A DNA stretch of 64,000 nt from Candidatus Methanomethylicia archaeon. GTDB lineage: Archaea > Thermoproteota > Methanomethylicia > Culexarchaeales > Culexarchaeaceae. Shown here one piece after another: positions 24,727-29,805 of this stretch (within the stretch, counting starts at the first letter, position 1; each line of letters opens with the position of its first letter). A program made the translations under genes and the position numbers. The notes under the pieces were generated by a model that saw only the letters and a list, made by a program, of their open reading frames with translations, searched no databases and was not told the origin of the DNA. The DNA lies in NCBI GenBank assembly GCA_038727515.1, contig JAVYVS010000002.1, positions 64,001 through 128,000 on the forward strand, written 5' to 3'.

Positions 24727-24868
24727 TATCGAAAATAAATAGGTATAGGATTCTACAACTTCATAACTTGATTTGTAAAATTTTCATTTAGTAGAAATTC
24801 GTATTTTCTTTCAGGTTTTGAGGTAAGAATTTTAATTAAGTTATATTTATTTTATTATAATATTTTGA

Positions 24869-25780
24869 ATGATACCCTTAGCATTCGAAGAAATGCTAAG
24901 TCCTGAGCTTGAGAAGGAGTTGTTGAAGATATATGTAGGTCAGAACATTAGGATAGATGCTAGGTTTGGTAAAAGACGGGGGATTTTAAGTAAAGATGTA
25001 AATCAAATATTGGCTCGTAGACTTCTGCTTATGGGATTTATCAAAGAAGATACTTGGTATCGTCTTACATTATATCAAACGACAACAGAAGGTGAAGCGT
25101 ACATAAAACCGATTATTAAGCTTATATGCACTACATTTAATGACGCTGTTAATAAAGCGGTTGAACATCATGGTATTCCTCCAAGAATAATTGGATTCGT
25201 AGTTCATTATTACCTTTTACCTTCATTAAAATTTCCTGCTATTCAACCATCAGAAACAACGGCTGAATTATATGCATTGGATAGAATACTTAGAGATTAT
25301 GAAGTTTGGGAATACTGCTCTAAGTTCATGCAGATCTTGGAAGAAATGAACCTATGTGTTAAAGCACATTTCTATGTTTCCTCACATGGAGGTAAAGAAG
25401 ACGAACCTTACTATGTAATAAGCTTTGAATTACAAGAGTATTTAGAGAATAGCCAGATCCCCCCACCATTTACTGTGGAAGAAGAGAAAGAATTGAAAAT
25501 ATATGAAGTACTAATTCGCACCATTAGGTTATTCTCAGGTCCAGTCAATACATATGTTGGCTACTCGCTTAGAACGTATCTAAAGTTACTTGAAGAGTAT
25601 AGAATTACAGAGGATGATGTGAAATCAATCATCGATAAAGCTAGTGCAAAAGGGCTTACAAGCAAATATGAAGTGTTACCAAATAGAAATCCCTTTATAA
25701 TTCATGATATACATAGGTTTAGCTTCTATATTTACAAGGAGTTAATAGAGCCGAAGATAGAATACCTTTTAGAATTTTAA
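24869..25780 (+). CDS. Hypothetical protein
   Basis: 303-aa ORF with no recognised motif; next to the tRNA/island. Confidence 0.6.
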   Translation: MIPLAFEEMLSPELEKELLKIYVGQNIRIDARFGKRRGILSKDVNQILARRLLLMGFIKEDTWYRLTLYQTTTEGEAYIKPIIKLICTTFNDAVNKAVEHHGIPPRIIGFVVHYYLLPSLKFPAIQPSETTAELYALDRILRDYEVWEYCSKFMQILEEMNLCVKAHFYVSSHGGKEDEPYYVISFELQEYLENSQIPPPFTVEEEKELKIYEVLIRTIRLFSGPVNTYVGYSLRTYLKLLEEYRITEDDVKSIIDKASAKGLTSKYEVLPNRNPFIIHDIHRFSFYIYKELIEPKIEYLLEF

Positions 25781-26029: not shown

Positions 26030-26104
26030 CGGGCCCGCCGGGATTTGAACCCGGGGCCTCTGGCTCCGGAGGCCAACGCTCTATCCAAACTGAGCTACGG
26101 GCCC
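26030..26104 (-). tRNA. tRNA-Arg(CCG)
   Basis: Reverse complement GGGCCCGTAGCTCAGTTTGGATAGAGCGTTGGCCTCCGGAGCCAGAGGCCCCGGGTTCAAATCCCGGCGGGCCCG folds into a cloverleaf; anticodon loop CT-CCG-GA, no intron. Confidence 0.95.
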
Positions 26105-26249
26105 GATTTTTCCTATCCGAACATTTATATATCTCTTCCTCCCCTTTTTCTTGATGCGTCTTGGAGAAGTTTAGTTATAGACACGCATTTTCTAAAAGAG
26201 CTCTGAGGCTTACGCAGAAGTTAGGGCTTGATTTGATGAGCTTAAGGTT

Positions 26250-27380
26250 TTGAGAAGTGGAAGAACAGCCCACGACTATCTGGATATGCTTGCTGGTTTT
26301 GTTGAAAGCTCTGGAAAATCCCCTAAAGATTTAGTTGGGCTATCTTCCAGTGAAGCATATGATGTTTTGAGGAAATGGGATTTATCTGAACTTCGCAAAT
26401 GTTCCTACACTACTGGAAGACTTTATGTTTTATGGAATGCTGTCAAAAACTTCTTGAAATTTCATGGAATTGAGGTGAAAAATAAACCGCCTTTCAAGAA
26501 GACTGTGAAATACTTGGACAAGATTCCAACGAAGGAAGAGTTAAGGCAAATATTAAATGCAGCTTCAAGCCTTTCAACCAAAATTGCCATTGAGCTGATG
26601 CGTTATGGAGGATTAAGACCAAAGGACATATGTGATTTAACCTACTCAAGCATAAAAAACGATTTTGAGGGGGGAAGTCCATTTGCAGTGTTTGTTCCAC
26701 AGGCAAAAAGTGACAGCGTTTACGTCACTTTTATTCCGGAGACAACTGTTGGGCTGATTCGCCAATATTTTAGGTTTAGGGAAAGTAAGGGAGAGAAAAT
26801 AATTGATAAAAGCCCTATAATAGCAAACCCGAGGTATCCAAGCAAAGGGATTAGGAGAAAAACGTTAACAGCCAAAATAGAAAAGGTGATTGCTAAGAGC
26901 GGAATTCAATCGCAGTTAACCTTTGGAAACAAAATTCAGAGAATTAGGCCCTACAGTTTAAGAAAGTATTTTTAGGAGCAATTTAACTGGGCATGCCCCA
27001 AACGAGTATATTGAGGCTTGGCCACACCTCCGGCTTAGAGCATGTATACAGCGGGACAAGGGATCTGGACCCTTCCACAATTGAAAGGATGCGTGAGGTT
27101 TACAAGAGATGTGAACCTTCCCTTTTAGCCACAGCCCAACCGCTAGATCAAAATTCCTTGGTTACAGAAGCAAAAATAGAAGCCTTGAAAAGCATAGCAA
27201 AAAGCCTCCTATGAATAGACCTGCTCGATGTTAAAGTTGCAAAAGAAAGGCAGATTGGAAGAGAGTTAAGCAAGGACGAAGAACTCTAGCTTTACGAGAA
27301 AGAGCTGAAAAAACTAAGAGAGGGAAAACATAACCCCCAAAGGATAATACATGAAAGAGAGCTTGAAAAATACATTTCCC
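26250..27380 (+). pseudogene. Tyrosine recombinase/integrase, frameshifted
   Basis: GLR (R) and PYSLRKYF (HxxR-like), then frameshifts before LGH...HVY (catalytic His/Tyr); the tail has in-frame stops. The 5' end is also broken. Confidence 0.88.
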
Positions 27381-27432
27381 AAGAAGACATAAAGAAGGTT
27401 AAAGAACTGATTATAAAGGCGATCATGGAGAA

Positions 27433-28014
27433 ATGAGCGAAAATTTTGAGGAACTCTTATTTGCGGACATTCTTGTCAGAAAAATTGAAATTAAGGAGAT
27501 TTCGCCTTGCACCGCCGACCCGGAAAGGATTAAGTTTTTGGCGCAGGCTGACAAGCTCCTAGAAGATGTTTTGCCGATTCTCTATTTGGCTATTCCAAAC
27601 GCCAAATACTCCGAAAAGCTCGGCGCATTAAGCTACGTGTACCAGCAACACCTGATAACCATTTTCGCTAATGGCAGAATCAGCATGACCTACGTCAAAG
27701 ATAGAAACGAGGCAAACCAACTCGTCGAAGAGGCTAGGCAACTAATAAACCGCGCCATCATATACCTGAAAACCCATGGAAAGCCAAGCCCCGAAATGAT
27801 TCATGCCAAAAAAGAATTAACACCAGTAAAGATTTACGAGTTGTTGCCGAAAACGAACTGCAAAATGTGCGGGGAGCAAAGCTGCTTCGCTTTTGCAGCC
27901 AAACTTCTAAACGGAGAAAAAACATTGCAGGACTGTCCACCATTGGAGTCTAAGGAGTACGAAGCCTTCAAGTTTCAAATAGAGAGGATGATGAATCCAA
28001 TTAGGCTGAAGTAG
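27433..28014 (+). CDS. (Fe-S)-binding protein with C-terminal FeS domain
   Basis: N-terminal PCTADP; C-terminal LPKTNCKMCGEQSCFAFA...CPPL. Confidence 0.85.
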   Translation: MSENFEELLFADILVRKIEIKEISPCTADPERIKFLAQADKLLEDVLPILYLAIPNAKYSEKLGALSYVYQQHLITIFANGRISMTYVKDRNEANQLVEEARQLINRAIIYLKTHGKPSPEMIHAKKELTPVKIYELLPKTNCKMCGEQSCFAFAAKLLNGEKTLQDCPPLESKEYEAFKFQIERMMNPIRLK

Positions 28015-28061
28015 AAGCTTTTAAGAAACATATTTAAATATTTTAATCTCACTATTTATGC

Positions 28062-28448
28062 TTGGTAAACAAAATGCTTGAATCTAAAATTGATAAAAGG
28101 CTTATGAGGTTGATAAGTTCCGGACGTTGTCCTCATGAAGATCCGCAGAGATACGTTGCTGAGCTAAGACATCTTGCGGATGATGTGGCGAGGGTTGATG
28201 AGGCTGAGGAGCGATGCAAATTTTTTAAGGCTTTGGCGGACACGACGAGGCTTAGGATTTTGAAGCTTTTGGGCGTTAGGGAAATGTGTGTTTGCGAGGT
28301 TATGATAGCCCTTGATTTAACCCAGCCAACAGCTTCGCATCACTTAAAAATACTGGAAAACGCTGGGCTAGTTAAAGGCAGAAAAAAGGGAAGATGGGTA
28401 TACTACAGCGTTAAGAATCCAAAGATAATTGAAAGTATGTTTCAGTAA
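28062..28448 (+). CDS. arsR: ArsR/SmtB-family metalloregulator
   Basis: FKALADTTRLRIL, EMCVCEV (CxC alpha-3 site), SHHLKILENAGLV, GRWVYY. Confidence 0.9.
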   Translation: MVNKMLESKIDKRLMRLISSGRCPHEDPQRYVAELRHLADDVARVDEAEERCKFFKALADTTRLRILKLLGVREMCVCEVMIALDLTQPTASHHLKILENAGLVKGRKKGRWVYYSVKNPKIIESMFQ

Positions 28449-28461
28449 GACTTTGCAAGCC

Positions 28462-28746
28462 TTAACGGTAACCGTATTTCTCTCGCAATTCTCTAAGCAT
28501 CTGCTTAAGTTCCTGCCTTGAAGGGAAGCTTATGGCTCCCACTGGGCACCGCGGTCTACATGACTCGCATCCTACTAGACAATTGTAAGGTCTTGCAACA
28601 ACTACCTTGTCGCCCTGCTTTTCGTAAACATGTTCATGGCAGAATTCCACACAGATTCCGCAACCAATGCAAAGCTCATGATTAATTGTTGGAAACCATT
28701 TAATCTCCTTTCGCGGTATCCCTAAATACGTTTTCTCCTCGCCCAT
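28462..28746 (-). CDS. 2[4Fe-4S] ferredoxin family protein
   Basis: CIGCGICVEFC and CLVGCESCRPRCPVGAISF. Confidence 0.9.
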   Translation of the reverse strand: MGEEKTYLGIPRKEIKWFPTINHELCIGCGICVEFCHEHVYEKQGDKVVVARPYNCLVGCESCRPRCPVGAISFPSRQELKQMLRELREKYGYR

Positions 28747-28747
28747 C

Positions 28748-29128
28748 TTACGCGCCAACCACCTTACTTACAGCTTCCTCAACCTTCTTCATGGCCTCTG
28801 CCGTCTCCATATTCCTCAAATCCAGAGAAATTACTTGCTTGTCAAAGTCTAAGCCCTTTTCAGCAAAAGCGTCCTTAAACATTTTCCTCTGCATCCTTGG
28901 GTCGCATCCACCGATAATGTATATTTTGTCTTTATCCGTTTCCTTCAAGTAATCCCTGAGAAAGTTGTCCCCATCCGTGACGCAAAGCTGAGGATGGATT
29001 ATAGCGTATTCTACGTCAAGCTCATTTCTAACAAAGTTTATAAACTTCCACAAATCCAACTTTGCAAATCCGGGACATTCACCAGTACAGAAACACATTA
29101 TAAATCTTGGCAATTTCCTCTCACTCAT
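28748..29128 (-). CDS. Stand-alone HdrA N-terminal-domain-like Cys protein
   Basis: CFCTGEC...HPQLC...GGCDPRMQ resembles the HdrA N-terminal pattern CxC...LC...ACSPR. Confidence 0.55.
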   Translation of the reverse strand: MSERKLPRFIMCFCTGECPGFAKLDLWKFINFVRNELDVEYAIIHPQLCVTDGDNFLRDYLKETDKDKIYIIGGCDPRMQRKMFKDAFAEKGLDFDKQVISLDLRNMETAEAMKKVEEAVSKVVGA

Positions 29129-29220
29129 ATTTTTCACCTTGTTAGTTGAAGATTATATTTAAACATTTAAATTTATCGTTTTGAAGTTTCCATTTTAAAG
29201 GAAAATTGCGTTAATTTTGA

Positions 29221-29601
29221 CAGCTATTATTAGAAGCCACTCGTGCAGACCTATTTACCACAGACCTGGCCATATATGAAGCCTGTAACAGCCTCTGGAA
29301 GCTTTCAACATTATTGAAATCAATATCCATAGAGGATGCCATAGACACCGCCACCACGATAAAAGACTTAGCCACAAGAGGCGTGATAAAAACAATAAAA
29401 TTCACAAAACTAGACTTTTCCCACACATTTCAAATAGCTTACAAAGAAGGGATAACCTTCTACGACGCCTCATACATAGCAACAGCTAGAAACGCAGAAG
29501 TCACCCTAGTAACAGAAGACGAAAAACTAAAGGAAACAGCAAGAAAATTCATAAAAACAATAACATATTCAGACCTCGAAAACAAACTAACTCAAACCTA
29601 A
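29221..29601 (+). pseudogene. 5'-truncated PIN/VapC toxin
   Basis: LAIYEACNSLWK, ITFYDASYI and LVTED present. The N-terminal catalytic Asp strand and start are missing (stop at 29218); no antitoxin. Confidence 0.75.
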
Positions 29602-29669
29602 CAGCCAAAAATGAAAGTGTATCTGAAAACGCGCGAATACCATAGATATAGGTTCGGATAGGATTTTTC

Positions 29670-29693
29670 CTATCCATGCTGAGCTACGGGCTC
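29670..29693 (-). repeat. att-like copy of tRNA-Arg nt 1-24
   Basis: GAGCCCGTAGCTCAGCATGGATAG versus tRNA GGGCCCGTAGCTCAGTTTGGATAG (26081-26104): 21/24 identical, direct orientation. Confidence 0.85.
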
Positions 29694-29805
29694 AATTTTC
29701 ATGGATTATTTCACTTTATTTTTAATGAATTCTCAATTTTGTTATATTTTTGTTTAAGTTTATTATATAAGTTTCTTTGCATAATTTATGTTATTGGTGT
29801 AAAGT

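Follow-up and report, generated by a model that had tools for sequence, protein, structure and literature searches.

A Decayed Integrative Element Inserted at the 5′ End of an Archaeal tRNA-Arg(CCG) Gene and Its Relatives in Bathyarchaeia-Type Archaea

We analyzed a 64,000-nt stretch of DNA (hereafter the window; contig JAVYVS010000002.1, positions 64,001–128,000, assembly GCA_038727515.1) from a Candidatus Methanomethylicia archaeon, in which an island containing a tyrosine integrase gene lies directly upstream of a tRNA-Arg(CCG) gene. Comparison with very close strains showed that this 3.6-kb stretch is an insertion at the start of the tRNA gene. The tRNA has been cut off from its native promoter, and element DNA now stands in the promoter position. 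It is very probable that positions 26105–29669 represent a decayed member of a small family of integrative elements of Bathyarchaeia-type archaea, which was inserted at the tRNA 5′ end by the mechanism proposed below. Demonstrated here are the insertion, as judged from an empty site, as well as the repeat, the architecture common to the family, the side on which the crossover lies, and the decay.

Insertion at the Start of the tRNA-Arg(CCG) Gene

In several related genomes (G001, G002, and G006–G009), tRNA-Arg(CCG) is located 300–640 nt upstream of, and divergent from, the gene for family-B DNA polymerase (PolB). In the window, these two genes are 3.9 kb apart. Strains for comparison were taken from the same 90% PolB cluster as the window. 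An empty site, which the first-pass annotation of this DNA had suggested seeking in related genomes, was found in three of them (L088, on a 1.58-Mb contig, L089, and L091; ~99% identical). Window positions 26111–29669 are absent from these strains, the left and right flanks are 99.7% and 98.8% identical to those of the window, respectively, and the sequence from 29694 onward directly adjoins a complete tRNA-Arg(CCG). The two alignments of L088 to the window overlap by exactly a 30-nt repeat, which marks the breakpoints of a 3.56-kb insert. The same island is present in strains L062–L064, L085, L092, and L093.

Both ARAGORN and Rfam (67.9 bits) detected a single tRNA, Arg(CCG), at 26030–26104 on the minus strand, and it is the only Arg-CCG gene in the genome-wide tRNA list of this 93.6%-complete genome. 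This functional gene represents the attR side of the insertion (P arm, core, and host tRNA body). The island lies upstream of it, and a displaced 5′ fragment in the same orientation is found at the far end of the island. As the first-pass annotation had described, nt 1–24 of the tRNA are duplicated (26081–26104 vs 29670–29693) with 21 of 24 positions identical and three mismatches, and the integrase gene (open reading frame [ORF] 26250–26975) is divergent from the tRNA. The imperfect repeat in fact runs to 30 nt, i.e., tRNA nt 1–24 and six nt upstream (26081–26110 vs 29670–29699, 26/30). Allowing up to three mismatches, the 24-mer occurs at only two places in the window and was never matched in 100 dinucleotide-preserving shuffles of it (mean 0.00); the repeat is thus far beyond chance. 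Within the near copy (26081–26110, minus strand), the true identity block is nt 1–15. The far copy is the displaced tRNA stub (attL; 29670–29693, minus strand), whose nt 1–15 are of the tRNA type and whose nt 16–24 (CATGGATAG) are a D-arm look-alike carried by the element. The A at position 2 of the stub is a private later mutation of the window genome, because sister strains L062, L064, and L085 have G2.

Fragments of tRNA genes are common, and several tRNAs of this genome share GGGCCCGTAGCTCAG. These facts would be in line with a stub left over from a tandem duplication of the tRNA, or with a similarity that arose by chance and has nothing to do with the integrase. We consider such an origin hardly credible, because the shuffles predict zero chance matches, in six loci the stub is joined to an element arm that is conserved, and the insertion breakpoints coincide with the repeat.

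Additional repeats were observed at both ends of the inserted element. An imperfect 22-nt inverted repeat built on GTTCGGATAGG lies just within them (26111–26132 and 29642–29663), an exact 14-nt direct repeat, GATTTTTCCTATCC, occupies 26105–26118 and 29662–29675, and the far end contains the palindrome GGATAGG-AAAAAT-CCTATCC (29656–29675). The P′ arm of the element (29642–29669, minus strand) carries the GTTCGGATAGG motif in inverted form together with half of this palindrome, and is conserved beside the stub in L057, L062, L078, L083, and L084. On the other side of the stub is the native upstream region, or B arm (29694–29805, minus strand), which abuts the whole tRNA in L088, L089, and L091. 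Its original TATA-like box, TTAAAAATAAA, at 29715–29725 (minus-strand reading), is located 22–32 nt before the stub and would now drive only the stub.

Position of the Crossover

The first-pass annotation had placed the crossover near CTATCC in the D arm and regarded the 5′ end of the working tRNA, including the TT of its D-loop, as element derived. The empty site reversed this assignment. Its tRNA has TT in the D-loop, the same as the working tRNA of the window, and the two are identical from nt 16 onward. Because the empty-site tRNA has TT, the CA of the stub is not the host's; TT is host native, and CA is element DNA.

Far ends could be located in the window, its sister strains L062 and L085, L057, L078, L083 (partner of L069), and L084 (partner of L076). 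These provide six far-end stubs, two of them the same island in sister strains, at four tRNA species. In all of them, nt 1–15 match the type of the local tRNA (nt 11–15 read CTCAG or TCTAG). Nt 16–24, on the other hand, are a D-arm look-alike of the element type, which reads CTAGGATGG in L057 and C[AT]TGGATAG in the other five, and GAAAAATCCTATCCGAAC comes next. This is the case even where the local tRNA reads GGATTAG or GGACAG, so the exchange lies 5′ of nt 16. We also considered an exchange in the run of A residues immediately before nt 1 and ruled it out, because the native arms of other loci have no A-run. Thus, the crossover lies within tRNA nt 1–15. Since nt 11–15 always track the target and native arms elsewhere lack the A-run, the overlap is most likely at approximately nt 9–15, in the 5′ strand of the D stem. 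The exchange left the mature tRNA sequence as it was; at most nt 1–15, which are identical anyway, were replaced, together with everything upstream.

It has to be considered whether the exchange instead occurred in the 3′ strand of the D arm, either at CTATCC or within the palindrome serving as a Xer-like 11-6-11 core, in which case nt 1–24 of the working tRNA, including TT, would be element DNA and the CA of the stub would be host DNA. The palindrome at 29656–29675 resembles a classic tyrosine-recombinase core, the integrase is XerA-like, and the repeat reaches nt 24. However, strains of the same species with the empty site have TT. At Arg-GCG and Arg-TCT, where the tRNAs read GGATTAG or GGACAG, the far stubs still end in TGGATAG, and nothing in the tRNA (AGCGTT) matches the spacer AAAAAT. 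These observations make a D-arm crossover quite improbable. The exact 14-nt repeat and the perfect 11-6-11 palindrome were rejected as crossover sites on the basis of the empty site and the element-type ends of the far stubs.

The Upstream Arm of the Element

The current upstream region of tRNA-Arg(CCG) is the P arm of the element (26105–26249, minus strand). These ~145 nt contain AAAAATC, the GTTCGGATAGG motif (26112–26122, plus strand), a TATA box, a purine-rich stretch resembling a transcription factor B recognition element (BRE), and the divergent integrase leader. The TATA box reads TATATAAA at 26124–26131 on the minus strand, where the first-pass annotation had noted a TATA-like sequence, and lies 20–27 nt before tRNA nt 1.

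This arm is absent from the empty site, and its individual columns are conserved across 12 integrase-bearing loci that represent four tRNA species. In the loci of homologous integrases (45–91% identity), it always adjoins nt 1 of a tRNA, which is Arg-CCG, Arg-GCG, Arg-TCT, or Lys-TTT, and it travels with homologous integrases in more than 12 Bathyarchaeia loci. When 15 upstream arms were aligned, the TATA box, GTTCGGATAG, AAAAT, and GGGCCCGTAG proved to be kept at ≥80% (conserved pattern ATAT..AATGTTCGGATAG..AAAAT.GGGCCCGTAG), with almost no length variation between the TATA box and nt 1. None of the other 35 tRNA genes of the genome has a P-arm-like upstream region, and theirs are far more AT-rich. 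Because the arm is absent from the empty site and travels with the integrase to other tRNAs, it belongs to the element. Both its position and its conservation suggest that it is now the working promoter of tRNA-Arg(CCG).

One might argue that 26105–26249 is the host's own tRNA promoter, and that the island was inserted farther upstream at an intergenic target or that the element captured the host promoter. A similar segment is indeed present at the same tRNA in G001, G003, and G005, which have no integrase, and the region upstream of the genome's tRNA-Arg(GCG) is weakly similar. Nevertheless, the closest strains, which have the empty site, contain a different upstream sequence, and the segment is also absent from G002 and G006–G009. 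Moreover, it lies inside the repeat-bounded unit and is contiguous with the integrase gene at four tRNA species in unrelated metagenome-assembled genomes. We therefore give host origin of the segment little credence. The first-pass annotation had reasoned that its view of the element would fail if island-free relatives had the sequence of 26105–26140 upstream of the same tRNA; the different sequence in the closest strains favors that view with regard to these closest relatives. Of its broader proposal, that an element at the tRNA 5′ end replaced both this end and the promoter, insertion and separation from the native promoter are borne out by the empty site and by the arm that travels with the integrase, whereas the suggested origin of the D-loop is not.

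A Family of Integrative Elements

A relative of the island is present on metagenome contig L057. It encodes an intact 417-aa integrase that is 87% identical to that of the window and occupies the same divergent position before tRNA-Lys(TTT), where ATTTTTCCTATCCGAACATTTATATATCTCT, as in the window, adjoins nt 1 of the tRNA. The integrase gene is followed by intact vapB and vapC genes and then by the far end, which consists of a Lys-type stub and the same inverted motif, giving an element of 2.2 kb. Further relatives of the integrase are encoded in 15 loci from GTDB genomes, most of which are labelled Bathyarchaeia or Bathyarchaeota and one Hadarchaeota. Those with enough upstream sequence are arranged in the same way at Arg-GCG (with and without intron), Arg-TCT, and Lys-TTT. 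In L057, L077, L078, and L083, the vapC gene found in the window adjoins the far end of the element; the far end itself was not found in L077, where it is deleted. Within the GTDB class (62 genomes searched), the window pseudogene was the one close member of this integrase family, and all other matches were only 23–32% identical.

According to these comparisons, members of the family consist of a P arm, a tyrosine integrase gene, variable cargo, vapBC, and a P′ arm. The attachment site of the free element (attP) would contain a copy of tRNA nt 1–15 between GGATAGG-AAAAAT motifs (two direct and one inverted), in the order P arm, nt 1–15, CATGGATAGG-AAAAAT-CCTATCCGAAC. The integrase, for which the GGATAGG motifs may be binding sites, would recombine this copy with nt 1–15 of tRNA genes starting with GGGCCCGTAG. 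Integration would then join the tRNA body to the P arm, with the TATA box 20–27 nt before nt 1, and would leave the native promoter 3.6 kb away, before a 24-nt stub followed by a hairpin. In the lineage of the window, the integrase then died, first by a shared stop and a shared 5-nt deletion and later by further lesions, and vapBC decayed, so that excision is no longer possible.

Several observations weigh against this scheme. The use of the P arm as a promoter is deduced from its position and conservation only, and a fossil P arm in G001 has a poor TATA box. In L057, a mismatch at nt 12 falls within the stretch suggested for the overlap, and the cleavage positions are themselves inferred. A scan of IMG/VR and JGI metagenome contigs for the attP (excised-circle) junction pattern did not detect any such junction; its single metagenome hit turned out to be the far end of a sister strain. 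In addition, an 11.6-kb interval bounded by such ends (L086, G062:C23:43300–55500) holds a RadA-like gene.

The L086 interval extends from tRNA-Arg(TCT) and its arm to a matching far end, and contains a frameshifted integrase gene, a RadA/Rad51-family gene, a ParB-like gene, and a gene for a rhodanese protein. These may be unusual cargo or host DNA trapped by rearrangement, and some of the presumed elements may therefore include rearranged host DNA.

Variation was also observed in other loci. L057 and L058 are 99.8% identical through the host flank, tRNA-Lys, and integrase, and diverge completely ~90 nt past the integrase stop (~4805), which points to rapid cargo exchange at that position; the far end of L058 could not be found. 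In L059/L060 (9700–10000), a 29-nt tRNA 5′ fragment with a CAT D-loop precedes a 55%-identical integrase and runs toward a second, distantly related recombinase gene, with no intact tRNA within 21 kb. A second recombinase is also present in L074, on the 3′ side of its tRNA-Lys.

Decay of the Integrase and Gene Content of the Island

The integrase gene of the window (26196–27435, plus strand) was examined by PF00589 searches, three-frame translation, alignment to intact homologues (full length, 374–417 aa), and a lesion map. ORF 26250–26975, which is continued in other frames, matched PF00589 (E = 2.7e-7, 31 bits vs a cut-off of 27.1). In-frame stops occur at 26229 (TGA), 27212 (TGA), and 27287 (TAG), and there are two frameshifts: a +1 shift near 26970, by which a TAG at 26973 comes into frame, and a deletion of 5 nt near 27020. 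Compared with the intact L057 gene, the TGA at codon 13 and the 5-nt deletion are common to all island-bearing strains. The 1-nt insertion and two further in-frame stops are found only in the window, whereas the other island strains have a 7-nt deletion instead. The catalytic residues (Arg in GLRPED, Arg in SLRKYF, His in GHTSGL, and Tyr in VYSG) are invariant or nearly so in intact homologues, and in the window they are spread over three frames rather than contained in one open frame. The gene is thus a pseudogene, and the element is locked in place and can no longer excise.

The nearest solved relative of the integrase is XerA (PDB 4A8E, E = 5.8e-10). Its score against the NCBIfam XerA model (NF040815) is only 71 bits vs an equivalog cut-off of 220, below that expected of a XerA chromosome-dimer resolvase, and it is a XerA-related tyrosine recombinase. 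The intact L057 homologue, P0002, matched a PHROG integrase (E = 1e-18); no match was found when plasmid and phage collections were searched with the integrase.

A truncated gene for a PIN-domain toxin, vapC, remains near the far end (29221–29601, plus strand; Pfam PIN and tblastn), with approximately its first 19 codons missing. The VapC of L057 matched this remnant over residues 20–141 at 78% identity, and its VapB gave no match there, so that a VapBC pair is not present. The integrase and vapC modules of the window are 82% identical to those of L057, and similarity to other family members is broken at 27373–29220, the region of the Fe-S/ArsR genes. Positions 27433–29137 are variable cargo between the two modules. 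Pfam and NCBIfam searches identified four genes in the cargo: an Fe-S-domain protein (PF04060; 27433–28014, plus strand), an ArsR regulator with a CVC motif (28062–28448, plus), a 2×[4Fe-4S] ferredoxin (28462–28758, minus), and a 129-aa Cys-rich protein weakly similar to the HdrA N-terminus (28748–29137, minus). They form a compact redox set with no arsenic-resistance effector among it.

A second variable region (24792–25251) was observed on the 3′ side of the tRNA, at ORF 24869–25780 (303 aa, no family match). This ORF is intact in the island-bearing strains, whereas 460 nt of it are missing in the empty-site strains L088 and L089, and the remainder is only 88% identical. Thus, both sides of tRNA-Arg(CCG) vary from strain to strain.

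Fossil Arms and Retention

Among the 62 genomes mentioned above, at least five have element-type arms directly before tRNAs but no close integrase homologue. Such fossil P arms are found at Arg-CCG and Arg-TCG in G001, at Arg-CCG in G003 and G005, and at intron-containing tRNAs in G022 and G024, the latter with integrase scraps. Only the ~80–145-nt upstream arm, not the island, is retained in these related genomes. The fossils could reflect selection for the arm once the tRNA depends on it, or the simple tail of deletional decay. The first-pass annotation had suggested that dependence of the tRNA might explain retention of the decayed island. The arms kept alone in relatives are in agreement with such dependence; the island itself, on the other hand, stays in place because its integrase is dead.

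Because fossil arms without a close integrase homologue would fit such a role, it is conceivable, though rather doubtful, that promoter take-over is a built-in retention device of this element family. Deletions that remove the arm would then be selected against, and the arm would outlive the integrase as a domesticated promoter of Arg and Lys tRNAs across Bathyarchaeia-type lineages. If true, promoter take-over would be a second, cis-acting "addiction" beside vapBC.

Two further observations concern tRNA arms of this type. The region upstream of the genome's tRNA-Arg(GCG), outside the window (L002, G000:C2:44450–44488), weakly resembles the element arm (~27/36 positions). Neither an integrase nor a vapC remnant or stub was found near this tRNA, and its upstream region may be an old fossil of a second integration. 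In G003 (L041, 7288–7436), the orientation of tRNA-Arg(CCG) and its element-type arm with respect to PolB is opposite to that in G005 and all other relatives, which suggests an inversion with one end at the tRNA.

Empty and filled sites as well as many sister elements are available here, and they cleanly document a natural case in which a mobile element appears to rewire how an essential-type gene is transcribed rather than merely restoring its sequence. The case also demonstrates that the DNA upstream of archaeal tRNA genes can stem from mobile elements, which bears on the prediction of promoters and genome islands; standard island finders that expect 3′ fragments would miss the 5′-end class. 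The compact integrase, with its very short and well-delimited target (tRNA nt 1–15), is a candidate site-specific tool in archaea.

Comparison with Known Systems

Integration at the 5′ end of tRNA genes is rare but already known; a 2002 paper by Zhao and Williams is, judging by its title and its citation in PMC6563490, the founding report of such reversed (5′) use. Like canonical 3′-targeting islands, such as P4-like islands, pNOB8-type elements, and SSV1 at tRNA-Arg-CCG, the island described here combines a tyrosine integrase with a tRNA target and rebuilds the gene from a copy carried by the element. However, the canonical islands replace the 3′ part of the gene and keep the host promoter, whereas in the window it is the 5′ end that is replaced, along with the DNA upstream of it.

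Use of the 5′ end has been described as "considerably less frequent" than 3′ use, with five cases cited (PMC6563490). The pTN3/TKV4-type elements of Thermococcales are among these rare 5′-distal cases (Krupovic et al. 2019, PMC6563490), and, according to the S2 Fig legend of PMC5495485, the tRNA rebuilt by pTN3 is "separated from its original promoter". The window element resembles them in recombining with the 5′ part of a tRNA gene and parting the tRNA from its promoter. On the other hand, theirs are SSV-type integrases, with the attachment site inside the integrase ORF, a gene that is split, and a ~41-bp core that reaches the anticodon. Here, the attachment site lies 145 nt upstream of an unsplit XerA-like integrase ORF, the identity block is nt 1–15, and the host belongs to another phylum. 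The integrase is therefore not of the SSV ("suicidal") type, and its homologue in L057 keeps an intact 417-aa gene while integrated.

An island upstream of a tRNA with a displaced 5′ fragment is also present in CalSub-E1 of Candidatus Caldiarchaeum subterraneum (PMC6563490), and the filters of Islander allow 5′ fragments upstream of the tRNA gene (PMC4383910). CalSub-E1 and Islander-class islands of this kind share these two features with the window element but involve other integrase families and other hosts, and are not known to have a conserved promoter-bearing arm. Similarly, a limited literature search found no description of the Bathyarchaeia family or of its conserved promoter-bearing arm.

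Finally, the integrase is related to XerA of the archaeal XerA/dif system, and the element has 11-6-11-like palindromic motifs. Nevertheless, the protein of the window is element borne and targets tRNA genes, whereas XerA/dif acts at a chromosome-dimer resolution site. Compared with all these systems, the new part is the family-wide conserved arm together with its fossils.

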